From contig CAKQGN010000001.1 in assembly GCA_934233745.1 (NCBI GenBank), positions 397,566 through 461,565 on the forward strand: a stretch of 64,000 nucleotides of DNA, in the 5' to 3' direction. The notes beneath the pieces were generated by a model. It saw nothing but the letters and a program-made list of their open reading frames with translations, was not told the DNA's origin and searched no databases. Numbering within the stretch: position 1 is the stretch's first letter; every line of letters starts with the position of its first letter. The stretch is from an uncultured Clostridia bacterium. Lineage in GTDB: Bacteria; Bacillota; Clostridia; Christensenellales; CAG-917. The translations under genes and the position numbers were made by a program. Below are positions 3,437 through 59,877 of this stretch, piece after piece.

Positions 3437-4216
3437 ATGAAAGTCGGCATTTCGACAGCAACATTTTTTTCAAAAGTATTGACCGAGGATTCGTTCTCGG
3501 TCATTCAACGCTGTGGGGGGGACACTTGCGAAGTGTTCCTCACCACTTTTTATGAATATTCGGACGCTTTTGCGAAACTCCTTGCCGAGCGCAAAGGCGA
3601 CTTTGACGTATACTCGGTTCATTCGCTCAACACTCAGTTTGAACCGCAACTTTTCAACAAAGTGCCGAGGACGTACGAGGATGCGGAAAGAATATTTCGC
3701 ATGGTACTCAACGTCGGCAAAACCATCGGCGCAAGAGCGTACACGTTTCACGCGCAGGCGAGGCTCAAACAAAGCGTGTACATCGATCCGAAATTCGTCG
3801 GCGAGCGTATGAGCAAATTGGGCGCAATCGCAAGCGAATACGGAATAAAACTCTGTCTTGAAAACGTGCATTGGGCAACTTTCGATTCACCCGAGTTTTT
3901 CAGGCAGATGAAACCGTATGCGCAGAATATAGGCACCGTTCTGGACATAAAGCAAGCAAGGCAATCGGGCTATGACTGGCGGGAGTATTTGGACGTTATG
4001 GGAAGCAGTGTTACAAACGTGCATGTGAGCGACGTCAAAGACGGCAAAATCGCTATGGTAGGCAAGGGAGATTTCCCTTTCAGAGAACTTGTGGCAAGGC
4101 TCAAAGACGTCGGTTATGACGGACCGCTCATCATCGAACAATATGCGGGAAATTACGATTCTTTTGACGAGGTTAAGGAATCGGTGGAATACCTTAAAAA
4201 CATTTTGGAGGCATAA
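3437..4216 (+). CDS. sugar phosphate isomerase/epimerase (xylose-isomerase-like TIM barrel)
   Basis: 259 aa with the family pattern ..YTFHA.., ..LCLENVH.., ..IIEQY.. . The start abuts the hpf stop. Confidence 0.7.
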   Translation: MKVGISTATFFSKVLTEDSFSVIQRCGGDTCEVFLTTFYEYSDAFAKLLAERKGDFDVYSVHSLNTQFEPQLFNKVPRTYEDAERIFRMVLNVGKTIGARAYTFHAQARLKQSVYIDPKFVGERMSKLGAIASEYGIKLCLENVHWATFDSPEFFRQMKPYAQNIGTVLDIKQARQSGYDWREYLDVMGSSVTNVHVSDVKDGKIAMVGKGDFPFRELVARLKDVGYDGPLIIEQYAGNYDSFDEVKESVEYLKNILEA

Positions 4217-4221
4217 AAGAT

Positions 4222-5616: not shown

Positions 5617-5617
5617 A

Positions 5618-6670
5618 ATGATAAAACTTGAGGGCGTAAGCAAACAGTATCTGTACGGAGCAAGGGTTTTTGCTCCGACGGATATGACAATAAAAGACGG
5701 TGAAATCGTCGCTCTGCTCGGTGACGAGTCGAGCGGCAAAACCACGTTTCTGAAAGTCGTTGCGGGCGTGACGGAATGCGAGGGGAAAGTGCTTTTCGAC
5801 GGTGAACCGCTTGCGAAAAAGCCCGACGACGTTGTGATGATTTTCGATGATCTGGCGTTGTTTGAAAACCGTTCTTGTTATTACAATCTTGCATATCCTC
5901 TCAAAATCAGAGGGGTTGACAAGGGCAAAACAGACGAGATCGTCAAGCATGCGGCGGATATCGTCGGTATAACCGCGTCGCTTTATTTCAAGGCGAAAAA
6001 ACTCGATTTGGCAGACAAAAAACGCCTTGCAATCGCAAGACTTTTCTTGCGCGATTTCAAGGTCGCGCTCGTCGATGACATCACGAGAGGACTTGACAAA
6101 GAGGACGCAAAAACCATTTGGAGCGAGGTTGCTCCCGTCTTGCAGGACTTTGCAAAAGAGGGTAAATGCGTGATTTTTGCAACGCGCGACAAGGACGAGG
6201 CAATCTCGATTGCGGATAGAATCGTCGTGACGCATTATCGTCAAATCAAGCAAATAGGCACATACGAACAGATATGCGAAAATCCGTCGAATATCTGGGC
6301 GGCGCAGGCGTTTGACGAGGATTATGCTTTTGAAAAAGCAAAACTTCAAAGCGTAAACGGCACACTTGTCGCAACCACCGAGGACGGCTTCGAGATAGAC
6401 CTTTCGCATCTGACAAACAGAGTGGTGCAGTCCTACATCGGCAAGAGCGTTTACGTTGGCTGGCATAGCGATTGCTATGACGTGCAAGGCGCGCGACAAG
6501 TCGAAGTAAGACACTCTTACAAAACGAATGACGGATATATTCTCGTCTGTGAAAATTGCAAAATCAAGAGCAGACTCAATCTTGCCCGAGTCGGAACGTT
6601 GCCTCTTTCGGGCAAGGCATTGGTCTTTGACGACACAAACGAAAATTCGATATTGTCTTACGGACAGTGA
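5618..6670 (+). CDS. ABC-type ATPase, MalK/UgpC-like with a C-terminal beta domain; catalytic motifs degenerate; no permease partner nearby
   Basis: Walker A pattern is kept (GDESSGKT). Q-loop Q->D (MIFDD), signature LSGGQ->LDLAD, Walker B DE->DD (LVDDI) and H-loop H->R (FATRD). Confidence 0.75.
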   Translation: MIKLEGVSKQYLYGARVFAPTDMTIKDGEIVALLGDESSGKTTFLKVVAGVTECEGKVLFDGEPLAKKPDDVVMIFDDLALFENRSCYYNLAYPLKIRGVDKGKTDEIVKHAADIVGITASLYFKAKKLDLADKKRLAIARLFLRDFKVALVDDITRGLDKEDAKTIWSEVAPVLQDFAKEGKCVIFATRDKDEAISIADRIVVTHYRQIKQIGTYEQICENPSNIWAAQAFDEDYAFEKAKLQSVNGTLVATTEDGFEIDLSHLTNRVVQSYIGKSVYVGWHSDCYDVQGARQVEVRHSYKTNDGYILVCENCKIKSRLNLARVGTLPLSGKALVFDDTNENSILSYGQ

Positions 6671-40300: not shown

Positions 40301-40690
40301 ATGGTGTTCAAACTTGTCGGAATCGCATTGACGGGAGTCGTTGTCGTGACGCTTTTGAAAAACTCAAAACCGGAGTTTAGCGTGTTTGCAAGTATCGCAA
40401 CAGGTGTCGTGATGGTGATAACTATGCTGTCCGCGCTTCAGGAAGTCGTGCTTGCGTTTGATGTCATCGTTGAAAAAAGCGGCGTCGACGACGAGGTTTT
40501 CTCTGCCGTTTTGAAAATTATCGGCATAGGATATCTGACCGAATATTCGTCCTCCGTCGCAACGGACGCCGGGTGTGAATCTATTGCGCAAAAGTTGCAA
40601 TTCGGAGGGAAAATCGTGATATTTTTGATGAGTATTTCCATTGTAAAAACTCTCGTAGACGTGGTGTCAACGCTTGTAAGTGCGATATGA
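40301..40690 (+). CDS. spoIIIAD: stage III sporulation protein AD
   Basis: About 129 aa, multi-TM. ..KIIGIGYLTE.. is typical of SpoIIIAD. Confidence 0.8.
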   Translation: MVFKLVGIALTGVVVVTLLKNSKPEFSVFASIATGVVMVITMLSALQEVVLAFDVIVEKSGVDDEVFSAVLKIIGIGYLTEYSSSVATDAGCESIAQKLQFGGKIVIFLMSISIVKTLVDVVSTLVSAI

Positions 40691-41952
40691 AAGATAAATT
40701 TTCGACTCGGTTAAACTCTCGTTTGCTTGAAAAAAACGCTAAAACAACACTGTTTTTTGCTGTGTTTATTATGCTTTTTTGCGTTGTTTTCGGTGCATGC
40801 TTTTTTGTCTTGTCCAAAGACAACCGCGCTGTTGCCGCCGATAAATCGGAGGAAGAAATCAGAAGGGAATTCGAGGGAAACGTAAACGATGTCATAAACG
40901 GACTTGACGTTGACGCTCTTCAAAATTTTTTGAACTCGCTTGGAGGGGAAGAGAGCGAAGCAATTTCGGTTGACGATTTGAAATCGACGCTTAAAGCACT
41001 TGTAAACGGTGAAACGCAAAGTTTCTATCAAAGTTTTTTGAGTGTTCTTTCAAAGTCGGCAGGGCGATATTTTTTGTCCTTTTTGCCGGGGTTTGTGACG
41101 ATTGCCGTTATTTGTTTGCTGAAAAACATGTTATGTTCGCTTACCGGAGATTTCCTCAACAATTCGACAACCGATGTCGTACATACGGTGTGTTATTGCG
41201 CAGTCGTTATTGTGCTTATAAGCGCGATTGCGGGAATAATCAAAACCGTAAGCGATACGATAAACGGACTTGCGACATTGACGAATGCGATATTCCCGGT
41301 GCTTTTGACTTTGCTCTCTTCTTTGGGAGCAACGGTGACGGTTGCGGGATATTCTCCTCTTATTGCGGTGTTCGATTCTGTTGTGATGAGGCTTGTGGGC
41401 AGCGTGATATTGCCTGCTTTCATCGCCTGCATTGTATTTTGCGTTGTCGGCAATATTTCAAAAACCGTCAAACTCGACAAACTCGCAAAACTAATAAAAT
41501 CCGCATCCGGCTGGCTTGTGGGAATCGTATTCGGATTGTTTGCGACTTTTTTGACAACGCAGGGCGTGACGGGCGGAGCAGTGGATAAATTCGGTTTTAA
41601 CGTTGCAAAGTTTGCGGTGTCGAGTTATGTGCCTGTGTTGGGAGGATATTTGTCCGACGGGCTCGATTTGCTGACGGCATCCGTCGTTCTTGTCAAAAAC
41701 GCCTTCGGATATGTCGGAGCAATCGTTCTTTGCGCAACAGTGTTGTTCCCCCTTGTAAAAATCGTCATATTTTCACTCACTCTAAAACTTGCCTCGGCAG
41801 TGTGCGAGCCTTTGGGGGATACAAGAACATCGAATTTGCTTTATTCGGTGTCGAAAAACATGAGTTTGCTTATAACGGCTCTTGCGGGTGTAGCGTTTTT
41901 GTTTTTCCTTCTTGTGATGTTGCTGATTTCGTCTTGCAATATGGGGATATGA
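40687..41952 (+). CDS. spoIIIAE: stage III sporulation protein AE
   Basis: 421 aa polytopic membrane protein. Assigned by operon position. Confidence 0.85.
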   Translation: MKDKFSTRLNSRLLEKNAKTTLFFAVFIMLFCVVFGACFFVLSKDNRAVAADKSEEEIRREFEGNVNDVINGLDVDALQNFLNSLGGEESEAISVDDLKSTLKALVNGETQSFYQSFLSVLSKSAGRYFLSFLPGFVTIAVICLLKNMLCSLTGDFLNNSTTDVVHTVCYCAVVIVLISAIAGIIKTVSDTINGLATLTNAIFPVLLTLLSSLGATVTVAGYSPLIAVFDSVVMRLVGSVILPAFIACIVFCVVGNISKTVKLDKLAKLIKSASGWLVGIVFGLFATFLTTQGVTGGAVDKFGFNVAKFAVSSYVPVLGGYLSDGLDLLTASVVLVKNAFGYVGAIVLCATVLFPLVKIVIFSLTLKLASAVCEPLGDTRTSNLLYSVSKNMSLLITALAGVAFLFFLLVMLLISSCNMGI

Positions 41953-46863: not shown

Positions 46864-46938
46864 GCGGGAGTGACTCAGTGGTAGAGTGTCACCTTGCCAA
46901 GGTGAAAGTCGCGGGTCCGAATCCCGTCTCCCGCTCCA
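46864..46938 (+). tRNA. tRNA-Gly (anticodon GCC), CCA encoded; T-loop reads TCCGAAT instead of TTCGAAT
   Basis: Hand-folded cloverleaf. Acceptor GCGGGAG/CTCCCGC, anticodon arm TCACC-TTGCCAA-GGTGA, T arm GCGGG-TCCGAAT-CCCGT. Confidence 0.85.
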
Positions 46939-47079
46939 CACAAAGCAAGACGGTATGAATAGAAAATCTTGTGGGTTGAGAAATCAATTGACGGGATTCG
47001 CTTCACAAAGTGAAGTGCGATGAAATCGCAGACACGCGAAGCGGGTTCGCACCGCAAGGTTGCCGCGCAGGCGGCCACA

Positions 47080-47099
47080 CCGTCTCCCGCTCCACACAA
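47080..47099 (+). pseudogene. 20-nt duplicate of the tRNA-Gly 3' end and flank (CCGTCTCCCGCTCCACACAA)
   Basis: Identical to 46924-46943. Confidence 0.8.
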
Positions 47100-47126
47100 C
47101 GTATCGGCATCACCGATATAAGATAT

Positions 47127-47200
47127 GGCATCATAGCCAAGAGGTAAGGCAAGGGTCTGCAAAATCCTCACCCCCAGTTCAAGTCTGGGTGATGCCTCCA
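47127..47200 (+). tRNA. tRNA-Cys (anticodon GCA), CCA encoded
   Basis: Acceptor GGCATCA/TGATGCC, anticodon arm AGGGT-CTGCAAA-ATCCT, T arm CCCAG-TTCAAGT-CTGGG. Confidence 0.85.
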
Positions 47201-47204
47201 AAAA

Positions 47205-47234
47205 ATATCTCGCAAACAGCGAGATATTTTTTTA
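47205..47234 (+). terminator. intrinsic terminator after tRNA-Cys
   Basis: ATATCTCGC-AAACA-GCGAGATAT hairpin plus T-run. Confidence 0.75.
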
Positions 47235-47342
47235 TATTTCCTGATTTGTTATATTTTTAGAGTGTGAAACACGCAAAGCACTATTTACATTTTGACGCTT
47301 TGGTGTTATTATATCCGTAGCAATCAAAGGTAGGAAACATAT

Positions 47343-47699
47343 ATGGAAGACAGTCCTCTTGTCGAACAATCGAAATCGTTTGCACTTGACATAATCAAGC
47401 TGTGCAATCAAATCAAAATCGATAGGCGCGAAACCGTGCTTGTCAATCAACTTATGCTCTCGGGAGCGAGCATAGGCGCAAGAGTGAGAGAGGCATATTG
47501 CCTGCAAGACAAAAACGACTTTATCAAGAAATTGCAAGAGGCTCTCAAAGATTGTTCGGAAACAGAATATTGGATTGAATTGCTGATTGAAAGCGGCACG
47601 TACTATTCGGACAGAATGATTCTTGAAAAGTGTATCGAGATAAAGAAGATGCTTATGTCCACAATCGCAAAGGAGAGCGAAACGGCAAAAGCCGAATAG
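47343..47699 (+). CDS. four-helix-bundle protein (23S rRNA intervening-sequence protein / Avd-like family)
   Basis: 118 aa. ..SKSFALDIIKLC......E.VL.NQL.RS..SIGA...EA......DF..KL.. is the typical pattern of this family. Confidence 0.8.
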   Translation: MEDSPLVEQSKSFALDIIKLCNQIKIDRRETVLVNQLMLSGASIGARVREAYCLQDKNDFIKKLQEALKDCSETEYWIELLIESGTYYSDRMILEKCIEIKKMLMSTIAKESETAKAE

Positions 47700-47879
47700 T
47701 GCATGTGGCAGATATAATACAATAAGAAGAGGGATTTTGCGGAATCTCTTTTTTTATATAAAAACGATTTTGTTGCGCTTTACTTTTTGCGGTTGCCGTG
47801 ATATTATTTTCTCACATAGCAGTCGCAAGGAAGATTTATTTTTTCCTTAACTGCACGAAGTGCAATATCATTTTTAGAT

Positions 47880-47972
47880 GTCATTTCGAGCGCAAGCGTT
47901 GGAATCAAGCCGTAAGGCGCAATTCGCTCCGCTAGATTGCCACGTCGCAACGTTGTTGCTCCTCGCAATGAC
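47880..47972. repeat. composite REP-like palindrome (unit GTCATTTCGAGCG..GGAATC plus an inverted GTCATTGCGAGGAGCAAC..GGCAATC unit)
   Basis: Two inverted units around AAGCCGTAAGGCGCAATTCGCTCCGCTA. Flanked by 30-bp direct repeats at 47841-47870 and 47987-48016. Confidence 0.8.
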
Positions 47973-47997
47973 AAGGGTAAATCGGATTTTCCTTAAC

Positions 47998-48083
47998 TGC
48001 ACGAAGTGCAATATCACTTGCGCAAAGCGCAAATAGCACTGTTGCCATCGGCAACAATATCACTGCACGAAGTGCAATATCAC
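47998..48083. repeat. tandem array of four variable hairpins, each followed by ATATCAC
   Basis: Units are TGCACgaaGTGCA-ATATCAC, TTGCGCaaaGCGCAA-ATAGCAC, TGTTGCCatcGGCAACA-ATATCAC and TGCACgaaGTGCA-ATATCAC. Confidence 0.8.
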
Positions 48084-48090
48084 TCAAAAT

Positions 48091-48115
48091 GCCGGAATGG
48101 CGGAATAGGCAGACG
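48091..48115 (+). pseudogene. 25-nt duplicate of the tRNA-Leu 5' end, running into an unrelated hairpin
   Basis: GCCGGAATGGCGGAATAGGCAGACG is identical to 48191-48215, exactly 100 bp downstream. Confidence 0.8.
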
Positions 48116-48190
48116 GATGAAACATATTCATCCCGGCGTCTGCACAAAGACCGCCTCGCACTTGGTTGAGAACGAAAACTTAATAAACAA

Positions 48191-48277
48191 GCCGGAATGG
48201 CGGAATAGGCAGACGCAAGGGACTTAAAATCCCTCGATGGAAACATCGTATCGGTTCGACCCCGATTTTCGGCACCA
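48191..48277 (+). tRNA. tRNA-Leu (anticodon TAA), long variable arm, CCA encoded
   Basis: Acceptor GCCGGAA/TTTCGGC, anticodon arm AGGGA-CTTAAAA-TCCCT, variable arm CGATGGAAACATCG, T arm ATCGG-TTCGACC-CCGAT. Confidence 0.85.
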
Positions 48278-50924: not shown

Positions 50925-52046
50925 ATGAGCGAACAAGAAATCAACAACACCCAAGCAGAACAGACGACTGCGCAAGACGAACAATCCGACCAAACCGAGC
51001 AATCGGCATCGGAGCAATCTGCCAAGTCGAAAAAGTCTGCAAAAGGCGCAAAGGGCGACAAAAAATCCGCCGCTGCGACCAAAAAGGAGCAAGCCCGCTT
51101 GAAAAAAGAGTGGGAGGATTCTATCGTTGCTTCAAAAAAGGTCAAGCATGAGGAAATGCGTCGCAAGCTCAAACGCGCCATGCTGATCATGCTTGTTTTT
51201 TCGCTTATCGTGACGTCGGTTGTGTACATTATGCTTTTGTTTGTTCAAGAAAACAACATTCGCATCACGGCGAGCAACCGCAACAAAGAAAAATCAATCT
51301 CGTTGTCGATGGACAACGATTTTTGGACGCCGTACCTCAATGCCGAAGGCCCGGAGCATATGTGGAACATTAGTTATGATGTCCGCTACAAAACCGAGCA
51401 ACTTGACACGATTGCCAAGGTTGCCGAAATGCTTGAGGCGGACGAAGTGCAACTTGGCACACAAAACGGCGAGCAATTTATCAGATTTGTTTTCATGCTC
51501 AAAAACACGGGCAACGAGGCGGCGCACATCAACTATGAGATGACTCTTGAATTTGACAAGCACAAACTTCACGACGCCGTTCGCGTCACATGGGGCGAGA
51601 GCTTCAAGAATCCGAATGCAGAGCTTGAGAAAAAAACCGATGTAAAGGTTTATGCCGCTTTGTCCAAAAACGAGCGTCTTGCCGGTTCAAACATCAATAT
51701 CAAGGGTGACGGCACGCCTCGCACGGCGCAAGAGGGCTTCATCGAGTATGTTGCCTATCCCGGCGACTTTACCACACAGGTTCACAAGGGCGACAAGTAT
51801 TATTACGTCAAGGATTATGAATCCACGGTTGACATTGACAAGCGATTTGACGATATGGCAAACGGCTTTGTTGCCACGACGCCGTTCTTTTCGGACGAAT
51901 ATGTATTCCAACGCGAAGCGGACATGGCAAAAGGTGACATTATGTACTGTTATGTGAGCATCTGGCTTGAGGGGAGTGACTTTGAATGTATCGATGACCG
52001 ATTGGGAGGTTATTGCAAGATTGGCTTGAACTTCTATGCAACCTAA
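50925..52046 (+). CDS. membrane-anchored paralog of the two SipW-signal proteins (acidic/Lys-rich cytoplasmic N-terminus, one TM helix, exported domain)
   Basis: The C-terminal motif YCYVSIWLEGSDFECID..GGYCKIGLNFY parallels YYITMEIWIEGTDAECIQ..GGGITLKMEFVY in the 53502 gene. Confidence 0.6.
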   Translation: MSEQEINNTQAEQTTAQDEQSDQTEQSASEQSAKSKKSAKGAKGDKKSAAATKKEQARLKKEWEDSIVASKKVKHEEMRRKLKRAMLIMLVFSLIVTSVVYIMLLFVQENNIRITASNRNKEKSISLSMDNDFWTPYLNAEGPEHMWNISYDVRYKTEQLDTIAKVAEMLEADEVQLGTQNGEQFIRFVFMLKNTGNEAAHINYEMTLEFDKHKLHDAVRVTWGESFKNPNAELEKKTDVKVYAALSKNERLAGSNINIKGDGTPRTAQEGFIEYVAYPGDFTTQVHKGDKYYYVKDYESTVDIDKRFDDMANGFVATTPFFSDEYVFQREADMAKGDIMYCYVSIWLEGSDFECIDDRLGGYCKIGLNFYAT

Positions 52047-52071
52047 AAATTCGCCGAAAGGCGAATTTTTC
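52046..52071 (+). terminator. intrinsic terminator
   Basis: AAATTCGCC-GAAA-GGCGAATTT hairpin plus a T-run. Confidence 0.75.
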
Positions 52072-52073
52072 AA

Positions 52074-52165
52074 TGATATCGCGCTTTGCTCGATGATATC
52101 ACTTCGTGCGATGCACGATATAATTACGGAGTGATATCACCGCACAATGTGAGACATTCACGCCC
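52074..52165. repeat. hairpin/GATATCAC array (includes the perfect palindrome GTGATATCAC)
   Basis: ..GATATCGCGCTTTGCTCGATGATATCAC TTCGTGCGATGCACGATATAAT TACGGAGTGATATCAC CGCACAATGTG.. . Confidence 0.65.
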
Positions 52166-52337
52166 GAAAGGACAACGTGCGACACCAATGCCCCTACTCG
52201 TGTCATGTTGAGTGCATAGTGCGATACACACCCTCATGTGTCATGTTGAGCGGAGTGAAACGCAGTCGAAACATCTCCTGGAAAGGAAACGATGTGAATT
52301 GTCGCAAGTATAGCGCACAACAATTCAATTCTTCCTT

Positions 52338-52430
52338 GTCATTGCGAGGAGCAACGAATGTTGCGACGTGGCAATCTAGCGGAGCGAAATGCGCCTGACG
52401 GCTGGATTCCCACGCTACGCTCGGAATGAC
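52338..52430. repeat. composite REP-like palindrome (two inverted GTCATT.CGAG..GGAATC units)
   Basis: GTCATTGCGAGGAGCAACGAATGTTGCGACGTGGCAATC-TAGCGGAGCGAAATGCGCCTGACGGCTG-GATTCCCACGCTACGCTCGGAATGAC. Confidence 0.8.
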
Positions 52431-52492
52431 AGTAGGGTGGGACACCCACACCTGATTGACAAGTGGGATATTCCACAATCCGAGCAATGTGA

Positions 52493-52582
52493 GGATATCA
52501 TCGTGCGTTGCACGATATCATCACAAAGTGATATCACCGCCGCAGGCGATATCATGTGCGCAGCATATGCCTGCGCATCACC
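52493..52582. repeat. hairpin/GATATCA array
   Basis: GATATCATCGTGCgtTGCACGATATCAT CACAAAGTGATATCAC CGCCGCAGGCGATATCAT GTGCGCAGcatatgCCTGCGCATCAC. Confidence 0.65.
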
Positions 52583-52937
52583 TGCGAAGCGCGGCATTTT
52601 GTCGCATTTTCCCACTTTTATTAAAAAAAGTATATCAAAAGATTTATCGTGGCGGGCGGGCGCAGGTATGCTCGCGCACATTCGCGTACATTCGCGCGTC
52701 ACGCGCTCGCTTACGCACGTTATTATACAAAATATGCATTTTATATATTATATACCGCATAAAATTATCAAAATATGCAAAATCATTGCATAAAAGCGTA
52801 TAAATATCCAAAATTACATTGCGCAAGAAAACCGACATAATCGTACATATGTACGGACATCATACATTTGATGTGGATAAAATCATGCGTTTTGTAGGGA
52901 AAAATGTTGAAACCTAAAGAAAATCTTAATTTTGGTG

Positions 52938-52966
52938 TTGACATTTATGCATTGTCGATTTATAAT
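52938..52966 (+). promoter_or_regulatory. perfect consensus sigma-A promoter TTGACA-17 nt-TATAAT, ~535 nt upstream of the 53502 gene
   Basis: TTGACA at 52938-43, a 17-nt spacer and TATAAT at 52961-66. Confidence 0.6.
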
Positions 52967-52982
52967 TCATGTATAAACGAAT

Positions 52983-53022
52983 CGCATGTGTGCGTGTATG
53001 TACATGTACGTGCGCGCATATA
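52983..53022. repeat. 40-nt perfectly alternating pyrimidine-purine tract (Z-DNA-prone)
   Basis: In CGCATGTGTGCGTGTATGTACATGTACGTGCGCGCATATA every position alternates Y-R. Confidence 0.85.
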
Positions 53023-53107
53023 ATGGAGTGAAGAGGGCAGACGGTTGCGCAAATTCGCAATTTTACACCCCACCCGATAGACAAGTGGAATATTCCGATT
53101 CTTCCTT

Positions 53108-53201
53108 GTCATTGCGAGGAGCAACGAATGTTGCGACGTGGCAATCTAGCGGAGCGAAATGCGCCTGTCGGCTGGATTCCCACGCTGTCGCTCTGAATGA
53201 C
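53108..53201. repeat. composite REP-like palindrome (near-identical to 52338-52430 and, inverted, to 57647-57740)
   Basis: GTCATTGCGAGGAGCAACGAATGTTGCGACGTGGCAATCTAGCGGAGCGAAATGCGCCTGTCGGCTGGATTCCCACGCTGTCGCTCTGAATGAC. Confidence 0.8.
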
Positions 53202-53351
53202 AAAATGGTGGGACACCCACACCCGAAAGCACAACGTGTGACACCCCGTCCCCATGTGTCATCCTGAGGCACGAAGTGCCGTGAGGATCTCCTGGAAAGG
53301 AAACGATGTGAATTGTCGCAAGTACAGCGCACAACAATCCGATTCTTCCGT

Positions 53352-53400
53352 GTCATTCCGAGGGAGCGGAGTGACCGTGGGAATCCAGCCGTAAGGCGCA
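53352..53400 (+). repeat. REP-like unit (GTCATTCCGAGGGAGCGGAGTGACCGTGGGAATC + CAGCCGTAAGGCGCA)
   Basis: Same family. Part of a ~165-bp module that is also present at about 52240-52345. Confidence 0.7.
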
Positions 53401-53587
53401 CCCACCCGAACGCACAACAAAACAAAAACAAAAAAATAAAAAAATAAAATTTGGGATAAAGTTTTTTAGAAAGGGGCTTTATTCCGATAAGGAGAAAAAC
53501 GATGAAAAAGAAAGGTTTGATTATTTCAACAGTCGTGATGGTTGTTGTCTTGATTGCATCTCTCACCACCGCTACATACGCTTGGTT
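53401..53587 (+). repeat. outer inverted repeat, left arm (5' UTR, RBS and first 29 codons of the 53502 gene)
   Basis: About 187 nt, essentially identical (one A-run indel) to the reverse complement of 57443-57632. Confidence 0.9.
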
Positions 53588-54764
53588 CTCGGCGCAAGCA
53601 AGTGCGACAGTTGATGATCTAGCATTCACAACCAAGGCTGCAGATGGTCTTCAAATCGCTATGAAAAATGCTGGCTCAACAACTGCAGAATATGTTTCGG
53701 GCAACCTTACATACAACCCTGCTGCAACCGATAATACCTATTGGGAAGGCGATGTGAATGATTGGGGTACTAACCTAGGTTTTGATGCTATTGATATTGG
53801 TGAAATTACGGATGCAGTAACCTATCATACTACTCAAAATTATCCTGTATTTAGCGGATATACACCCGTTGCTGTTTTAGCGGTTAATACCACATATTAC
53901 ATTCCCACAAAACATGAAAATATTACTACTAAAGACGGATTTGATGCAATCTCAGGAGCAAAGTATTATGAGAAAGAATCTAAATATGTTCTTGCCAATA
54001 AATTAATTGATAGCGTAACAACTTACTACACAGTCAAGTCAACAAAAACGGGAAAAACAGCAGCAGAGCTTCCCAATAACTATACAGCAAATTCTTGGTG
54101 GGCAAGAGCTACAAGCACTGCGACTATAACACCTGAAGGCATTGAGAATAATGGCCAATTCCTCGTGCCTACTGGTTATGATGATTCTATTAACCCAATC
54201 GGTTATGCAAGTGCGGTTAGAAATGGCAATTATTACTATTTGACAATGGCTGTAAAACCAGTTACTGACGTTGACAAACTTGGTTTGAAGATGACATTTG
54301 GTGCCACACAAAATAAAGCAGCACAAACACTTGATACCTCTGTTACTCAAGGCAATCTAAATGGTGCTATGGCAGCTGCAACTCGTTGTAATATTCTTTT
54401 TGAAAACAGCGCACTTCAAACTGCAAATAAGTCAAAACAAAATATTGCTCCGTTCAGCGCATTCTATGTTGATGGAACATCGCTGAAAAAATATACAGGT
54501 GCAGATGATGCTTCGTTTAAGAGCAATGAAGATGGTGCATACAATGCTACTGGTGTATATGAATATGTGCTGTCAGACACTTCCGTCAAGGCTGGTACGA
54601 TCTACTATATCACTATGGAAATTTGGATTGAAGGTACAGATGCTGAATGTATTCAAGAAACTGCAGGGGGAGGCATAACACTCAAAATGGAATTTGTCTA
54701 TGACAAAAATGGAAATACCCCGGTTGCTGACTTCGCTGCTGGAACTACTGTTACATGGGCATAA
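53502..54764 (+). CDS. secreted protein with a SipW-dependent (TasA/camelysin-class) signal peptide, paralog A
   Basis: MKKKGLIISTVVMVVVLIASLTTATYAWFSA.. fits the SipW-cognate signal class (..T.AYF[ST]). A SipW-type peptidase gene lies 4 kb downstream. The body is more AT-rich than the backbone. Confidence 0.75.
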   Translation: MKKKGLIISTVVMVVVLIASLTTATYAWFSAQASATVDDLAFTTKAADGLQIAMKNAGSTTAEYVSGNLTYNPAATDNTYWEGDVNDWGTNLGFDAIDIGEITDAVTYHTTQNYPVFSGYTPVAVLAVNTTYYIPTKHENITTKDGFDAISGAKYYEKESKYVLANKLIDSVTTYYTVKSTKTGKTAAELPNNYTANSWWARATSTATITPEGIENNGQFLVPTGYDDSINPIGYASAVRNGNYYYLTMAVKPVTDVDKLGLKMTFGATQNKAAQTLDTSVTQGNLNGAMAAATRCNILFENSALQTANKSKQNIAPFSAFYVDGTSLKKYTGADDASFKSNEDGAYNATGVYEYVLSDTSVKAGTIYYITMEIWIEGTDAECIQETAGGGITLKMEFVYDKNGNTPVADFAAGTTVTWA

Positions 54765-54780
54765 TTCCAATACACTTGAT

Positions 54781-54853
54781 AAAAATTACAACAATATACA
54801 AGTCCCGATTCACACCGAATCGGGACTTGTGTTTTTTTTATCCCTCTTGAATT
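54781..54853 (+). repeat. inner inverted repeat, left arm; contains the terminator of paralog A (54798-54839) and the -35 box of the NTase promoter
   Basis: The 73 nt match the reverse complement of 56164-56235 with two differences. Hairpin ACAAGTCCCGATT-CACACC-GAATCGGGACTTGT plus T8. Confidence 0.9.
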
Positions 54854-54875
54854 GTCCACCCGTCAATGTTATAAT
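54847..54875 (+). promoter_or_regulatory. promoter of the NTase gene (TTGAAT-17 nt-TATAAT, TG-extended)
   Basis: TTGAAT at 54847-52 (inside the inner IR) and TGTTATAAT at 54867-75, about 30 nt before the ATG at 54906. Confidence 0.55.
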
Positions 54876-54905
54876 TTTGGTAGAAAGCCACAAAGGAGGA
54901 ATAAT

Positions 54906-55550
54906 ATGGCATATCATTTTGCAAAGAAAGCAGATGTTAAAGAAACCAACAAATGGTGTGTTGAAATTTTGAATGAAGTGCAAACCATTGTAAAAGATTA
55001 TTTTACATTTTCGTATGAATTGATTGGAAGTGGTGGCAATCGCCTTGTAACATACAATGACGGTAATCCATTTGATTTGGACTACAATATTATTATCCAA
55101 AAAGACAAGCAACATTTGCTCCAACAGCCAGACCAAATAAAAGATATATTCTTCAAAGCGTTTCAAAAGACTTTTTGCAAGAATATCAAAGATTTCAACC
55201 GAACAAACTATATAAAAATCAACAATTCAAAATCAGTTATAACTGTTAAAAATATTGAATATGGGAATTTGGCATTTTCTTTTGATGTCGCAATTTTGAG
55301 GCAACACCCCAACGGATATTTTGAAAAAATAATTTTTGATAAAAAGAATAATCGCTATATCTGGAATCAAGTCAAGGACTCAAAAGATTTGAACGATAAA
55401 GTTTTGCATGTAAAACAAAGACCTGGCTGGAACGCTGTGAGAGAACGCTATCTTGAATTGAAAAATAATAGTTTGCGAAACAATGATGAAACAAAATCGT
55501 TTTCGATATTCATTCAGGTCATAAACGAGTTATATCAACATCTTGAATAA
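54906..55550 (+). CDS. Pol-beta-superfamily nucleotidyltransferase (MNT/SMODS-like core with a ~100-aa C-terminal extension)
   Basis: The G-S...D-x-D signature ELIGSGGNRLVTYNDGNPFDLDYNII and a third acidic residue in AFSFDVAIL. RBS AAAGGAGGA before the ATG at 54906. Confidence 0.6.
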   Translation: MAYHFAKKADVKETNKWCVEILNEVQTIVKDYFTFSYELIGSGGNRLVTYNDGNPFDLDYNIIIQKDKQHLLQQPDQIKDIFFKAFQKTFCKNIKDFNRTNYIKINNSKSVITVKNIEYGNLAFSFDVAILRQHPNGYFEKIIFDKKNNRYIWNQVKDSKDLNDKVLHVKQRPGWNAVRERYLELKNNSLRNNDETKSFSIFIQVINELYQHLE

Positions 55551-55574
55551 CTCTCAAATCTATTAGATAACCAC

Positions 55575-55602
55575 CAACGGCGCGGAATCTTCCGCGCCGT
55601 TG
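55575..55602. terminator. bidirectional terminator shared by the convergent NTase and HEPN genes
   Basis: CAACGGCGCGGA-ATCT-TCCGCGCCGTTG, a perfect 12-bp stem. Confidence 0.7.
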
Positions 55603-55608
55603 AGTTGG

Positions 55609-56100
55609 TTAATTAAAAAGATTATTGTAACGTTGTTGCTCATCTTTCATAATTTTTGCAAGGTCTTCATTTATCAATGACATTTCTTCAATTAAATTTT
55701 CCAATCTTTCATAATAGAATGTTGGATTTGTTTCTATCAAATTCATTTGCAAATCTTCCTTAAACAATTGGTGTACAACATAATTGCGTTCATCACACAT
55801 TTCGTCCAATCTGTTTTGAGATTGCTGGACAAAGTAACCGTGTTCTTGTGCCTTTTTGAGGCCATATCCAAGCGGCTTACATTCGAGTATATGATACCAT
55901 TTTTCTGCTTTTTGACTTATGTTATTAAATTTTTTATAAGACATATTTTTGCTCTTATAGAAATTTTCACACAGTTCGTCTAGTGCCAATATATTGGCAA
56001 TGTTGTACTCAATCATTTGCGACAAATGCACCACAAGCCCAACCTTGCCCAACAAAGTAAAATATTGTTCTTCTTGCAATGAAAATTGTTGTTTACTCAT
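55609..56100 (-). CDS. HEPN-domain protein (R-x4-H motif)
   Basis: ..MCDERNYVVHQLF.. carries the RNxxxH HEPN signature in a predicted all-alpha, 163-aa protein. MSKQQF.. start at 56100 behind GAGGAG. Confidence 0.6.
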   Translation of the reverse strand: MSKQQFSLQEEQYFTLLGKVGLVVHLSQMIEYNIANILALDELCENFYKSKNMSYKKFNNISQKAEKWYHILECKPLGYGLKKAQEHGYFVQQSQNRLDEMCDERNYVVHQLFKEDLQMNLIETNPTFYYERLENLIEEMSLINEDLAKIMKDEQQRYNNLFN

Positions 56101-56141
56101 AACTAACTCCTCAAAAAATATCTCCCATATGTGGTGAGGAA

Positions 56142-56170
56142 ATTTTAGCACAACAACAGGCAAAATTCAA
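56142..56170 (-). promoter_or_regulatory. promoter of the HEPN gene (TTGAAT-17 nt-TAAAAT on the minus strand), mirror image of the NTase promoter
   Basis: The -35 box at 56165-56170 lies inside the right inner IR. The -10 box is at 56142-56147. Confidence 0.5.
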
Positions 56171-56235
56171 GAGGGATAAAAAAACACAAGTCCCGATTCG
56201 GTGTGAATCGGGACTTGTATATTGTTGTGATTTTT
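56164..56235 (-). repeat. inner inverted repeat, right arm; contains the terminator of paralog B (56178-56219)
   Basis: Reverse complement of 54781-54853. Confidence 0.9.
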
Positions 56236-56253
56236 TTCAAATCTTTTGAATTA

Positions 56254-57528
56254 TCAGCCACCAACTGCTTGAATTGTAAGCTCTTTTGCATCTTTGCCTT
56301 GAGTTTGCACAACAACTTTTGTTGTTCCGGCTGTTGCAGTCACAGTACCAGTAGAGGTGAATTTGCCATTTGACCATGTTCCAGCAATGGTTTCTTCGCC
56401 AATTTTGACAGTCGTATTTGTTGCAGTATAGGTTGTCTCTCCGCCTTCAATTTCAAGTTTATTGTCAGCAGTAAGTTTTGCAGATGTCGCTTTAGTCTCT
56501 GCATTTGCACAGTCAAAGAACATTTTTATATCACCAGATGCCGTTTTGCCTTGGCCGTTACAGTCAGTATCTGCACCTGCCATATAAATAACAACCTCCA
56601 CTTGCGTAATCTTATTTACTTCAGTATCAAGTCCGCTAATAACACAAGCCATAGAACCTGTTGGTAGTGTTCCACCTATTGCGGTAGAATATGCAGTTGC
56701 AATAGTGCCTGTCACATTAGTTGTAATATCACCTTTTTTTGTTGTGCCTTTGTTTGTGCCATAAACGTCGACTTCTGTCCAATTCGGTTCAGCTGCGCCG
56801 TCTTTCCTTACTCGATAAGCAACGTGTATTGAAGCAAGTATGCCAAGAGTGCTAGTGTCTGAAGAAGGTGAAATCATGACAACAAAATTGTTTCTATCAA
56901 GTGCCTTTGTCGGTTGAACGCCAAGAATGAAATGCGCATAATCGCCCGCACCTTCACCATTAATATTTGCTCTAGCCAACGATTGGTTTGTCAAATCATT
57001 CGACCCCTGTGCCTTGTTTGCAGCTATGACAGCTGTTTTGCCTGTCGTTGTATTGCCATATGCGATTGAACCATCTTGGTTTGGAGTATCTGTAACCCAA
57101 AAACGCGTATTTGCTGTTGTTGCTTTTGATGCATTATCCTCAGATGTTGCCTCGGCGGAAGTAGTTAAACCAACAGCTTTTGCTTGTGAACCCCAATTGA
57201 TATTGTGTTCAAGAGTTGCGCTTAACCCATCGGAACCACCACTCCACGAGCCAGGATTATTGATTTTCCCTGGTCCTGAATCGTTTGTTGTACCAGTTGT
57301 AAAAGTAACAGAACCAGTTGTAAATTCTCCAGCTGAGGGATTTTGGCTTAATGAATATTCTTTTTTCATACCAATGTTAACAGCATTTGAAGATACGACT
57401 GAAACATTGAAACCAGATATTTCAGTTTTGTTCGATGCCGTAAACCAAGCGTATGTAGCGGTGGTGAGAGATGCAATCAAGACAACAACCATCACGACTG
57501 TTGAAATAATCAAACCTTTCTTTTTCAT
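56254..57528 (-). CDS. secreted protein with a SipW-dependent signal peptide, paralog B
   Basis: The first 29 aa are identical to paralog A (MKKKGLIISTVVMVVVLIASLTTATYAWF). The body is divergent and Thr/Gly/Ala-rich. C-terminal region ..VEVVIYMAGADTDCNGQG..GDIKMFFDC. Confidence 0.75.
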   Translation of the reverse strand: MKKKGLIISTVVMVVVLIASLTTATYAWFTASNKTEISGFNVSVVSSNAVNIGMKKEYSLSQNPSAGEFTTGSVTFTTGTTNDSGPGKINNPGSWSGGSDGLSATLEHNINWGSQAKAVGLTTSAEATSEDNASKATTANTRFWVTDTPNQDGSIAYGNTTTGKTAVIAANKAQGSNDLTNQSLARANINGEGAGDYAHFILGVQPTKALDRNNFVVMISPSSDTSTLGILASIHVAYRVRKDGAAEPNWTEVDVYGTNKGTTKKGDITTNVTGTIATAYSTAIGGTLPTGSMACVISGLDTEVNKITQVEVVIYMAGADTDCNGQGKTASGDIKMFFDCANAETKATSAKLTADNKLEIEGGETTYTATNTTVKIGEETIAGTWSNGKFTSTGTVTATAGTTKVVVQTQGKDAKELTIQAVGG

Positions 57529-57632
57529 CGTTTTTCTCCTTATCGGAATAAAGCCCCTTTCTAAAAAACTTTATCCCAAATTTTATTTTTTTATTTTTTT
57601 TGTTTTTGTTTTGTTGTGCGTTCGGGTGTGGG
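57443..57632 (-). repeat. outer inverted repeat, right arm
   Basis: Reverse complement of 53401-53587. Confidence 0.9.
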
Positions 57633-57646
57633 TATCCCACCATTTT

Positions 57647-57740
57647 GTCATTTAGAGCGATAGCGTGGGAATCCAGCCGACAGGCGCATTTCGCTCCGCT
57701 AGATTGCCACGTCGCAACATTCGTTGCTCCTCGCAATGAC
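57647..57740. repeat. composite REP-like palindrome (inverted copy of 53108-53201)
   Basis: GTCATTTAGAGCGATAGCGTGGGAATCCAGCCGACAGGCGCATTTCGCTCCGCTAGATTGCCACGTCGCAACATTCGTTGCTCCTCGCAATGAC. Confidence 0.8.
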
Positions 57741-57840
57741 ACGTGGGGGTGGGGTGTAAAATTGCGAATTTGCGCAAAAATCGTCGCTGTGGCAACTGCA
57801 ACGCTCACAGGTGCGCATTGCCGAGAGCCACGCTAGGTTT

Positions 57841-58146
57841 TTTCACAGGTAAAAGTACGTGTAATTTGAATTGCAATTTCCCCTTTCCTCAGGTGTTTTC
57901 CCCCTCGCCGTTCCCCCTTAAAATGGAACCCACGGCGACCGCGGAGCGGGGGACAACACTCAACGCTCGCATAGATAGGGCATTTCACTCATTATGCCAC
58001 TTCGCCTGCGTGGCGGCTCCGCAACAGAATGCCACGCATTCTCGTACTAACCGTCAAGCTCGGTGTTCGCTACGGTCGTCGCCTTGCGACTCCAATTCCG
58101 TCTTCGAATAGGCATATACCGTGCATGAGAACGCTTTGAATAAGTT
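57841..58146 (-). repeat. structured interspersed element, copy 5 (short form, minus strand, upstream of paralog B)
   Basis: The reverse complement carries all conserved blocks. The variable helix is TGCGTGGC/GCCACGCA. Confidence 0.85.
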
Positions 58147-58202
58147 TTTGAAAATAGAAAAATCAAAAATTGTAATAAAAAAACCCTACTGAATAGTAGG
58201 GT

Positions 58203-58233
58203 TTCAATTTGTTGGCGGAGAAGCAGGGATTTG
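58203..58233 (-). pseudogene. 31-nt duplicate of the tRNA-Ser 3' end and flank, with its own terminator hairpin (58180-58203)
   Basis: TTCAATTTGTTGGCGGAGAAGCAGGGATTTG is identical to 58387-58417. Confidence 0.8.
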
Positions 58234-58363
58234 TTCAATAGCGAGCAAGCAAGTTAACTTGCAAAAGCGAGCGTCAGCCTGGCGGTGACAGGGTTCACTT
58301 TGCGCAAAACGCAAAGTGCAAAGCAATGAAGTATTGCTTTGCAAAATCACTGCAAAAAGGTAA

Positions 58364-58386
58364 CAAAAAAGCACTCTTGCGAGTGC
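58364..58386 (-). terminator. intrinsic terminator of tRNA-Ser
   Basis: GCACTC-TTGC-GAGTGC hairpin with a T-run on the minus strand. Confidence 0.7.
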
Positions 58387-58396
58387 TTCAATTTGT

Positions 58397-58488
58397 TGGC
58401 GGAGAAGCAGGGATTTGAACCCTGGCTACGATTCACTCGTACTACTCCCTTAGCAGGGGAGCCCCTTCGGCCTCTTGGGTACTTCTCC
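58397..58488 (-). tRNA. tRNA-Ser (anticodon GCT), long variable arm, CCA encoded
   Basis: The reverse complement is GGAGAAGTACCCAAGAGGCCGAAGGGGCTCCCCTGCTAAGGGAGTAGTACGAGTGAATCGTAGCCAGGGTTCAAATCCCTGCTTCTCCGCCA. Anticodon arm CTCCC-CTGCTAA-GGGAG. Confidence 0.85.
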
Positions 58489-58899
58489 AAAAAAATAATA
58501 AACAGAATATTTGTTTGTCAAGGGGCATTTTGCCGATTGACTTGGTTATAATAGCACATGATTTGAAACATTGTCAATGATTTTTGTATAAATGCGACGA
58601 TGGTTTTGCGCCGTATTGGCGCATGTCATGCAGAATAATTGTCAAACTTGGTGTTTTGTCATATTTTTGCTGTTGACACGGGCGGGGTTTTCAGCTAAAA
58701 TACATAGTGTATAGTTATAACTATACGCTACAGCAAAATCATTCGAGCAAAGCGGCGCGATTGCGCGTTCCGTTGAAGGGCAATAAGCATGGCTCGGTGA
58801 CGTCAATAGTCATTCGTTTTCTTCTCGGCTGCGCCGTTGGCGCGGAGTGGGGCAATAAGTCGTGAGTCGAAAGTGAAGAAGCATCATAAGGAAGACAGT

Positions 58900-59877
58900 A
58901 TGAACATCAAGGAAAAACTCGCGTCCTCTTCCAAAAAGGAACGCACTCCTCAGCAACAAAAGGCCATGACCATTCTCAATTGGGTGGCAACCGCAGTTTG
59001 CATTATTGTAATTATTTTTGCGCTGATTGTGGCGATTTTTACCATTGCCGGCTCTACAAGCAAGGACCATCTCACAAGATTCGGTGACAAGATTTATCTC
59101 AACGTCGCGTCCGACTCAATGGAGCCGACTTTCAGCACCAGCGACGTGATTATCGCAAATGCGTTCAACTATGAAAAACAACTTGCAGAACTAAAAGTCG
59201 GACAAGTCGTCACTTTCAAGACTACGGTGCGCTCGGGCGGAAATACCTATGAGGTTTTCAACACCCACAGAATCGTCAGAATCAACTTTGAAGAAAACGG
59301 CACGACCGTAAGAAACTTCACCACGCGCGGCGACAATTCAAAATCCGCAGACAAGGATAATTCCAAACTTTCATGGAAAGAAGCCATTGTTCAAAACACG
59401 CTTGGTCTCACTGAAACAGTGGCTCCGTCCAACATCGTTGCCACTTGGGGCAGTGTGGACGAAAACGGCAATTTCACGTCAGGCAAGATGCTCAAGGGCG
59501 TAGGCGGATTTGCCAACTTCATTCAAGACACAGAGCACTTTGGCGCAAACCATAAGATGCGTTTCTTCTGCATCGTGGTTTTGCCGCTTATTTTGCTGTT
59601 TGTGATTTACGCATTTGTTTTGGTGCGTACTCTCGTCATTGCAAAACTCGAAAATCAACGCAAGGTGCAATCCGAGCAAGTCATCACGGTGGACAGCCTC
59701 TCCGACGAGGAAAAACGCCGTCTTGCCCAAGAGTACCTGGCGTCTTTGCAGGCGCAGACAGGCGGTGATACGTCCGATACAAAAGCCGATGACGCTCAAA
59801 CCGACGAAACTTCAACCGACAAGTCGGACAGTTCGGACGTCAGCGACGACAATGCAAGCGAGGATAAACCCGAATAA
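58900..59877 (+). CDS. sipW: signal peptidase I, SipW (archaeal/ER) type, with a C-terminal TM helix and an acidic tail
   Basis: Catalytic Ser box ASDSMEPTF, His box THRIV, and TRGDNS..D. ATG at 58900 behind AAGGAAG. Confidence 0.85.
   Translation: MNIKEKLASSSKKERTPQQQKAMTILNWVATAVCIIVIIFALIVAIFTIAGSTSKDHLTRFGDKIYLNVASDSMEPTFSTSDVIIANAFNYEKQLAELKVGQVVTFKTTVRSGGNTYEVFNTHRIVRINFEENGTTVRNFTTRGDNSKSADKDNSKLSWKEAIVQNTLGLTETVAPSNIVATWGSVDENGNFTSGKMLKGVGGFANFIQDTEHFGANHKMRFFCIVVLPLILLFVIYAFVLVRTLVIAKLENQRKVQSEQVITVDSLSDEEKRRLAQEYLASLQAQTGGDTSDTKADDAQTDETSTDKSDSSDVSDDNASEDKPE

Follow-up and report, generated by a model that had tools for sequence, protein, structure and literature searches.

A predicted miniature cGAS-like nucleotidyltransferase in a strain-variable defence hotspot of an uncultured Clostridia bacterium, and the Abi-type HEPN partner of its family

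In a 64,000-nucleotide (nt) stretch of DNA from an uncultured Clostridia bacterium (hereafter, the window), a small low-GC cassette lies between two genes for predicted surface proteins and carries two convergent genes, one encoding a 214-amino-acid (aa) nucleotidyltransferase (NTase) and the other a 163-aa probable HEPN protein. We found that the slot holding the cassette is a strain-variable defence hotspot at which recognised defence systems are swapped, and that the NTase family is tightly coupled to Abi-type HEPN nucleases of a kind that the window itself lacks. A first-pass annotation of the window had proposed that the two genes form an atypical MNT-HEPN module; with moderate confidence, we read them instead as independent tenants of the slot and not as an obligate pair. 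The genes concerned are as follows.

54906-55550, + strand: NTase gene, 214 aa, with the ribosome-binding site AAAGGAGG at 54892-54899
55609-56100, - strand: HEPN gene, 163 aa, with the ribosome-binding site GAGGAG
53502-54764, + strand: gene for a 420-aa predicted secreted/surface protein, the left wall of the hotspot
56254-57528, - strand: gene for a 424-aa predicted secreted/surface protein, the right wall of the hotspot

The two convergent open reading frames (ORFs) agree in length and strand with the first-pass description, as does their position between surface-protein genes.

The slot between the surface genes is a variable defence hotspot

In related metagenome contigs, homologous pairs of surface genes frame the same slot, with different contents. 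The comparison loci that we fetched are labelled with L-numbers (L001, L046 and so on), and their slots are occupied as follows.

L001-3: NTase, AbiD (PADLOC, E 5e-48) and a 161-aa protein
L046/47: 162-aa HEPN, a 431-aa protein (RNIIIH), ToxN/AbiQ and NTase
L057: HEPN, the 431-aa protein, a ToxN-like protein, PycTM and a cyclase (Pycsar-like), without the NTase
L121/122: NTase and DUF4238
L123/124: DUF4238, NTase and a Pycsar-like pair
L125-128: NTase and a 123-aa ORF only
L129/130: AbiD and NTase
L056, L131, L132: the same arrangement as in the window

The ToxN/AbiQ protein of the L046/47 type was matched by PADLOC at E 7e-33 and by Pfam at 8e-44. Across these relatives, the contents of the slot make the NTase its most constant tenant, with the rest, the 163-aa HEPN included, interchangeable. 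The cassette had been suspected to be a foreign-looking defence locus, and the presence of AbiD, AbiQ/ToxN, Pycsar and DUF4238 in the same slot confirms that it sits in a true one. Swapping of these systems among strains is what known defence hotspots do as well; unlike those, which are framed by prophage or integron landmarks, this one is framed by two convergent surface genes on what appears to be an invertible segment.

The unannotated 431-aa protein lies between the small HEPN and ToxN/AbiQ in L046 (5633-6928) and recurs in L047 and L057. It carries a CHRNIIIHNRG motif, the L046 protein had no Pfam or PADLOC match, and it is possibly another uncharacterised HEPN defence protein.

The NTase has an intact active site and a predicted CD-NTase-like fold

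The 214-aa protein contains the motifs GSGGNRLVTYNDGNPFDLDYNII and FSFDVAIL. Among 39 aligned homologues, down to approximately 50% identity, residues G41, S42, G43, D57, D59 and D127 are invariant, which upholds the Pol-beta NTase signature noted in the first pass, and the GS, DxD and D residues are kept in far more distant relatives too. The spacing from GS to DxD is 14 residues (G41-S42 ... D57-L-D59, GSX14DXD) and is conserved across the family.

The AlphaFold2 (AF2) model of the NTase had a pLDDT of 86.4 and a pTM of 0.81. It places beta-strands at residues ~101-155 and just three terminal helices at ~162-213, so that the helical extension of ~100 aa previously attributed to the protein is not borne out. 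In a Foldseek search of the PDB with this model, all of the top 50 matches were CD-NTase, cGAS or DncV structures (E 9e-6 to 8e-4), the best being DwCdnB (8ysc, E 9e-6), with a TMq of 0.39-0.59 and an rmsd (root-mean-square deviation) of about 5-12 Å for a 214-aa query against targets of 290-390 aa. No MntA, kanamycin/aminoglycoside or lincosamide NTase was among these 50, in keeping with the earlier proposal that the protein is closer to CD-NTase/cGAS than to MntA. Given the invariant active site and the CD-NTase matches of the AF2 model, we take the NTase to be a real, probably active enzyme of the Pol-beta fold; as modelled, it is intact and has a miniature cGAS-like architecture.

The NTase had no match at E<=1 in Pfam, NCBIfam (including the antimicrobial resistance [AMR] models) or PADLOC and none in PHROGs, and the family profile returned only noise from the PDB sequences. 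Its homologues formed 363 clusters in a word-indexed search, and an exhaustive profile search reached 874 representatives (50% identity level) at E <= 1e-3, of which 536 had E <= 1e-10. By these searches, the NTase belongs to a large family that is undescribed and unannotated. A tblastn search of cultured phage and plasmid collections found no plasmid match and two distant, unannotated phage matches.

The usual partner of the NTase family is an Abi_2-like HEPN protein

We took a census of partners in the 23 assessable species-representative genomes that encode the NTase at >=39% identity. For 21 of these genomes, the very next gene, co-directional with that of the NTase, encodes a protein of about 241 aa (~230-256 aa) with YRYDKR and ELRN[AC]VxHN motifs. 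The two reading frames share a few nucleotides (commonly 4 nt) or are separated by no more than ~10 nt. The partner matched Pfam Abi_2 at an E of 1e-4, just under threshold, and its profile matched PDB entry 8vz6, an "Abi family protein," at an E of 0.011. The operons come from Christensenellales, other Clostridia, Treponema/Spirochaetales, Erysipelotrichales and Acholeplasmataceae. Among their settings are MmeI-type restriction-modification (RM) and HamA (Hachiman) genes (L006) and a serine recombinase (L007). They are also present in IMG/VR contigs (L113, L133-135), and prophage settings occur; the NTase was immediately upstream in all three viral loci seeded from the partner. A tblastn search with the partner found no matches in the cultured phage and plasmid collections.

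The partner is absent beside the NTase in L017 and in the whole hotspot clade. Elsewhere, damaged or altered partners stand beside an intact NTase: one has the motif histidine replaced by leucine (RNAVML; L019, 6624-7343), another is just a 62-aa fragment (L020, 6624-6812) and a third is chimeric, with a foreign C-terminal half (L035, 559-1290). Distant members of the NTase family carry a fused PIN7 domain (E 5.6e-16) or HNH domain (E 2e-10). In the literature that we searched, we found no description of an NTase plus Abi_2/HEPN defence system of this kind.

L004-type loci have a 70-aa ORF ahead of the NTase gene, which we considered as a winged helix-turn-helix antitoxin and rejected, since its sequence corresponds to the C-terminal tail of the tRNA methyltransferase encoded upstream. 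In L004, the ORF (5776-5988) shares 41% identity over 37 aa (E 3e-8) with the tRNA (U5)-methyltransferase-like gene at 4123-5760, and it looks like a target-site or 3'-end duplicate left by an integrated mobile element that carried the operon.

The 163-aa protein is probably a stand-alone HEPN RNase

The motif DERNYVVHQ occupies residues 103-111 of the 163-aa protein. All 30 family members examined have N106 and H110, and 29 have R105, which bears out the canonical R-N-x3-H motif noted in the first pass; the family further conserves an N-terminal helix (LSQMIEYN) and an invariant E31. The AF2 model is all helical (pLDDT 86.5), with helices at 8-49, 55-74, 92-119 (containing the motif at 105-110) and 126-162 and a short insert at 79-86. 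Compared on secondary structure only, the order of the helices, the short insert that separates helices 2 and 3, and the location of the motif within the distal half of helix 3 match HEPN as published (PMC3710099).

The protein matched Pfam HEPN_RiboL-PSP at an E of 2.7e-4 and 21.3 bits, below the gathering cut-off of 28.4; beyond this sub-threshold match, nothing was found in Pfam, NCBIfam, PADLOC or PHROGs. Among the 30 family members, Pfam matches at E<=0.01 (best 1.2e-5) were to RiboL-PSP-HEPN (9 members), Cthe2314-HEPN (3), DUF4145 (3) and Apea-HEPN (1), all of which are HEPN-clan families. A Foldseek search of the model against PDB and BFVD returned only generic helical bundles (E >= 0.05), which gives the assignment no support, and because no match was significant the HEPN fold lacks structural confirmation. 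The fold proposed for this protein is thus backed by the motif, the helix layout and weak HEPN-clan profile matches and not by Foldseek. An hhalign comparison of the 163-aa family with the Abi_2-like partner family placed the two RNxxxH motifs in register, but its probability of 4.9% makes the alignment unusable as proof. A profile search with the family alignment returned unannotated relatives of ~156 aa as its top 120 matches, with no bridge to a curated family, and the family profile against the PDB sequences gave only noise. In all, the family numbers ~256 clusters. Judging from its sequence, we consider the protein a probable stand-alone HEPN RNase of RiboL-PSP-HEPN-like type. Its gene, small, HEPN-like and unaccompanied in variable or mobile surroundings, resembles known single-gene HEPN defence genes, except that PADLOC does not include the family.

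An RNA antitoxin for the HEPN gene was considered and dismissed: the ~40 nt upstream and the 58 nt downstream, filled by a hairpin, leave no room for one, and Rfam finds nothing.

Layout and composition of the cassette

Around and between the two genes of the cassette, we found the following signals.

54847-54875, + strand: sigma-70-like promoter candidate for the NTase gene, TTGAAT-17-TATAAT with a TG extension (consensus match only)
56170-56142, - strand: sigma-70-like promoter candidate for the HEPN gene, TTGAAT-17-TAAAAT with a TG extension (consensus scan)
54796-54832, + strand: intrinsic terminator of the 420-aa surface-protein gene, a hairpin and T-run
56220-56184, - strand: intrinsic terminator of the 424-aa surface-protein gene, a hairpin and T-run, mirror copy of 54796-54832
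55568-55611, either strand: GC-rich hairpin common to both convergent genes, overlapping the HEPN stop codon

Each promoter-like site comes directly after the terminator of the adjoining surface gene, and the terminators sit in a 71-nt inverted repeat (54768-54838 and 56178-56248, 93%). Both -35 boxes lie inside a perfect 21-nt inverted repeat (54833-54853 and 56164-56184), and the span 54847-56170 runs exactly from -35 box to -35 box. The consensus scan therefore recovers, as consensus matches, the separate promoters with repeat-borne -35 boxes that the first-pass annotation had described.

The central hairpin fills the 58-nt gap between the two stop codons. It has a perfect 12-bp stem that extends to ~18 bp, a folding free energy (dG) of -31.1 kcal/mol and z = -7.8 on the + strand and -6.7 on the - strand. 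The 12-bp stem of the shared bidirectional terminator proposed earlier is real; the hairpin, however, was not called by a T-run-dependent terminator scanner because it has no T-run, and it probably serves as a bidirectional terminator or as a 3' stabiliser.

GC content is 31-35% over 54.75-56.25 kb, 37-44% in the flanking 420- and 424-aa genes and mostly 46-51% in the backbone; the cassette stands at 32%, compared with ~47% for the backbone. The cassette does look foreign by composition, but the steep GC drop covers only 1.5 kb and not the whole interior between the repeats, as had been suggested.

The NTase and the 163-aa HEPN protein are seldom neighbours

We searched 66 loci, fetched via the 163-aa HEPN family, with the family hidden Markov models (HMMs). 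An NTase-family gene was within 5 kb of the HEPN gene (<=5 kb) in only 7 of the 66. The HEPN gene is typically last, directly behind a large gene, and the genes downstream are variable. Upstream of it were serine recombinases (15 loci), a pair consisting of a 623-aa HTH_3 protein and a 257-aa protein (10 loci), an 835-aa Flg_new-repeat protein (9 loci), a collagen/LRR protein (6 loci) or a surface gene (5 loci). In L048, the NTase gene that follows the HEPN gene already comes with an Abi_2-like partner of its own. Identities between loci are discordant as well: the window and L046 share 90% identity in the NTase and 64% in the HEPN protein, and the window and L056 share 85% and 99%, respectively. 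Because the pairing is rare, the L048 NTase has its own partner and the identities disagree, independent exchange is favoured over a co-evolving pair.

Several points weigh against the reading of independent tenants. The two families are both rare, and they are neighbours in at least three architectures, which is beyond expectation for rare families.

Architecture 1: convergent NTase/HEPN (window, L056, L131/132)
Architecture 2: HEPN, then NTase, then Abi_2-like (L048)
Architecture 3: HEPN, then a distant NTase-like gene, deeply diverged (L089/L092)

In the third (L089, 5004-6347; L092, 4998-6377), a distant small-HEPN family member (~38-40% identity) is followed, after a gap of ~270 nt, by the distant NTase-like gene (E ~1e-31 to 1e-34 against the family HMM), and both lie downstream of the gene for the 835-aa Flg_new-repeat protein. 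In the sister loci L093-L101, the HEPN gene is retained but other genes follow it. The recurring neighbourhood could reflect a real functional affinity. In addition, the 163-aa protein is the sole HEPN in the window near an NTase whose family habitually pairs with HEPN nucleases, and the mirror-image promoters and shared hairpin lend the cassette a designed-looking symmetry.

The neighbourhood in three architectures and the habitual pairing of the NTase family with HEPN nucleases would also suit a dedicated convergent toxin-antitoxin (TA) or abortive-infection unit, in which the NTase holds the 163-aa HEPN protein inactive by nucleotidylylation until infection, and so would the recurrence of the exact cassette in several samples (L131, L132 and L056) and the purifying selection on both genes (dN/dS 0.07-0.5). 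We consider such a unit unlikely. Apart from the rarity of the pairing, the L048 arrangement and the discordant identities, each gene occurs in the hotspot without its counterpart (HEPN in L057; NTase in L001 and L121-130), and the convergent genes, with their separate promoters, have no translational coupling. The 163-aa protein also lacks an acceptor tyrosine: its RNYVVHQLF has no tyrosine at H+2, and Y107 is phenylalanine in several members. What remains of the MNT-HEPN module of the first-pass annotation is a defence/TA hotspot with plausible defence genes and a real coupling of NTase and HEPN within the NTase family; the specific pairing is not conserved. Co-occurrence of the two genes in other genomes is likewise largely lacking for this pair, as judged from the 7 of 66 loci, the solitary occurrences and the discordant identities, but it is found for NTase and HEPN in general.

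Relation to known systems and an antitoxin-like model

The genetic coupling of a Pol-beta-fold NTase to an Rx4-6H HEPN protein recalls HepT/MntA, and in the canonical operon of the family the NTase gene comes 5' and overlaps or abuts that of the HEPN protein, an order known from MNT-HEPN dyads (PMC3710099). The two would probably also share their logic, an NTase that neutralises a nuclease; in HepT/MntA, this happens through oligo-AMPylation of the toxin. However, the HepT/MntA antitoxin is defined as a minimal NTase of <150 aa in PF01909 (NTP_transf_2) (PMC7641770), whereas the window NTase has 214 aa, no PF01909 match and the spacing GSX14DXD in place of GSX10DXD. The HepT/MntA toxin belongs to DUF86/PF01934 or PF08780 and has RX4HXY, with the acceptor tyrosine two residues after the histidine; the 163-aa protein reads R-N-Y-V-V-H-Q-L-F, with leucine, methionine or phenylalanine at H+2 in its family, and has no DUF86 match. 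The HEPN partners here are Abi_2-like or RiboL-PSP-like and not DUF86/PF05168, and the window genes are convergent, separately promoted and not conserved as a pair. The window pair is not a member of HepT/MntA, as every defining feature that we tested fails.

The usual partner of the NTase resembles AbiD/AbiF (Abi_2) in its YRYDKR and RNAVMH motifs and its 8vz6 match, and a full-length AbiD stands beside the NTase in the same hotspot (L001, L129), although the window itself has no Abi_2 gene. HEPN proteins of the AbiF type require a neutraliser, which for AbiF is an upstream noncoding RNA (ncRNA) (PMC13064643); in the NTase family, a protein-coding NTase takes the upstream position. The antitoxin of MNT-HEPN dyads is likewise the NTase, encoded by the 5' gene (PMC3710099, PMC7641770).

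In the explanation that we propose, the 1.4-kb low-GC cassette would be the present content of a small anti-phage/TA hotspot between the 3' ends of convergent paralogous surface genes, its two genes transcribed separately and most likely independent of each other. In its canonical form, the NTase is the 5' gene of a two-gene operon with an AbiD/F-like (Abi_2) HEPN nuclease, which it may control through nucleotidyl transfer in an antitoxin-like role, either by modifying the nuclease covalently or by producing a short oligonucleotide that inhibits or regulates it. Such a role would parallel those of the upstream ncRNA for AbiF and of MntA for HepT, and the latter parallel supports, by analogy, the NTase as an antitoxin-like controller. 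We infer the enzymatic activities, the antitoxin-like role and the independence of the two genes; the NTase is read as antitoxin-like because of its 5' position overlapping or abutting the partner, the need of AbiF-type HEPNs for a neutraliser and an asymmetry of loss. The NTase is often encountered without the nuclease, whereas no locus showed the nuclease on its own, a weak point being that this second half comes from just 3 independently seeded loci. The window NTase would have lost its canonical partner and, kept by purifying selection, would now be an orphan or stand-alone unit that perhaps gives cross-protection or has some other role by itself; alternatively, it may have adopted the neighbouring small HEPN. 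The 163-aa protein, for its part, would be a single-gene abortive-infection or toxin effector that usually rides alone in mobile or variable regions.

The fold of the NTase suggests the main alternative to this antitoxin-like role, that of an activator. In signalling of the CBASS or OAS-RNase L kind, the NTase would sense infection and make a second messenger that activates a HEPN protein, the 163-aa one here and the Abi_2-like one elsewhere. The only significant structural matches of the NTase (Foldseek E ~1e-5) are signal-synthesising CD-NTases, cGAS and DncV. It shares with them the GS...DxD...D triad, in its model an N-terminal helix and a C-terminal helical lobe and, unlike MntA, a long GS-to-DxD spacing (here 14 residues), and it sits in a defence-island context with a nuclease next door. 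HEPN RNases do act as effectors of nucleotide signals in other systems, namely Csm6/Csx1 and RNase L. We nevertheless find this role improbable. At 214 aa, the NTase is at least about 100 residues smaller than characterised CD-NTases and fits them only at a TMq of 0.4-0.6, and it has no profile membership at E<=1 (Pfam SMODS/Mab-21, PADLOC Cdn, NCBIfam). No Cap effector with a nucleotide-sensor domain (SAVED, STING) is present; the helical 163-aa neighbour is too small for a CARF/SAVED-type sensor, and neither it nor the canonical Abi_2-like partner has a recognisable nucleotide-sensor domain. The overlapping or abutting order, with the NTase 5' and the nuclease 3', and the pattern of partner loss suit an inhibitor better than an activator. 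By profile, size and effector type, the NTase is not a CD-NTase, though that fold is the nearest.

Roles outside defence, in which the NTase modifies a small molecule or antibiotic or serves the surface-protein locus and the HEPN-like gene encodes an unrelated helical protein, appear very improbable to us. The constancy of the NTase beside surface genes in the hotspot clade and the failure of Foldseek to confirm the HEPN fold would fit them. However, the NTase has no NCBIfam (AMR included) or Pfam match and no aminoglycoside or lincosamide NTase structure among its top 50 Foldseek matches, its co-tenants in the slot are all recognised defence genes, and outside the clade it is found apart from surface genes, in the company of Abi_2-like HEPN, RM/Hachiman genes, recombinases and prophages. 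The antitoxin-like model could also be widened into a scheme in which mini CD-NTase-fold enzymes are the control subunit for interchangeable nucleases (Abi-type HEPN, PIN or HNH fusions, small HEPN), with the window pair cooperating and a new principle distinct from type VII and CBASS; we regard this scheme as doubtful.

The surface genes lie on an apparently invertible segment

The 420-aa and 424-aa proteins are identical in their first 29 residues (MKKKGLIISTVVMVVVLIASLTTATYAWF) and then diverge. The repeat over this region is as follows.

53419-53593 and 57437-57611, the two arms: 175-nt inverted repeat, 97%, each arm taking in the start (~30 codons) of a surface gene and the region upstream of it

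Inverted repeats at window positions 53107-53593 and 57437-57741 bound a block of ~4 kb that comprises the surface genes and the cassette. In L125 and L126, which are ~99.8% identical, the interior 5.8 kb has the same orientation and both flanks are reversed, with inverted repeats of ~440 nt bounding the block. The orientation of the window is that of L126, L001 and L046, and the opposite is found in L125, L127 and L121. The ~4-kb block thus appears to be an invertible segment, and the inversion between strains, together with repeats over a shared N-terminus followed by protein divergence, suggests inversion-based surface-antigen variation.

A repeat of ~80-130 nt is present in three copies that are 97-99% identical (52337-52417, 53107-53235 and 57613-57741). 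The copies lie inside long (1.3-1.45 kb), apparently noncoding stretches at 52047-53501 and 57529-58836, in which Rfam found no match. Just outside the block, L125 (9417-9770), L126 (2211-2564) and L127 (9337-9690) carry a gene for a 117-aa 23S_rRNA_IVP (PF05635) protein, of a family that includes accessory proteins of diversity-generating retroelements; in passing, we noticed no equivalent ORF in the window. Upstream of the block, a 373-aa protein (50925-52046) shares with the 420-aa protein a C-terminal "IW(I/L)EG(T/S)D.EC" region (37% over 46 aa, E 2e-7), which places the two in the same family. A 346-aa ORF at 58837-59877 had a weak match to Peptidase_S26 (signal peptidase), which suggests that this may be a dedicated secretion or processing locus. 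Farther away, three tRNA genes (Rfam RF00005) are located at 46864-48274, upstream of an EAL-domain gene, and spoIIIAE, a sporulation gene at 40687-41952, marks the host as a spore-forming Firmicute.

Significance

The family-level result is of more interest than the window pair, which is itself probably a case of coincidental tenancy. If it is true, about 870 sequence clusters encode an unrecognised defence or TA system. These NTase genes, from gut Firmicutes, spirochaetes, mollicutes and prophages, are invisible to Pfam, NCBIfam, PADLOC and PHROGs. A stripped-down cGAS-like enzyme would then govern an Abi-type HEPN RNase, forming a bridge between the best-known NTase paradigms of bacterial immunity, MntA that AMPylates proteins and CD-NTases that synthesise signals, and providing a protein counterpart to the ncRNA antitoxin of AbiF. 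The hotspot, set amid an apparently invertible surface-protein segment, would be a natural "cassette exchanger" in which small defence genes of uncultured gut Clostridia may be found.

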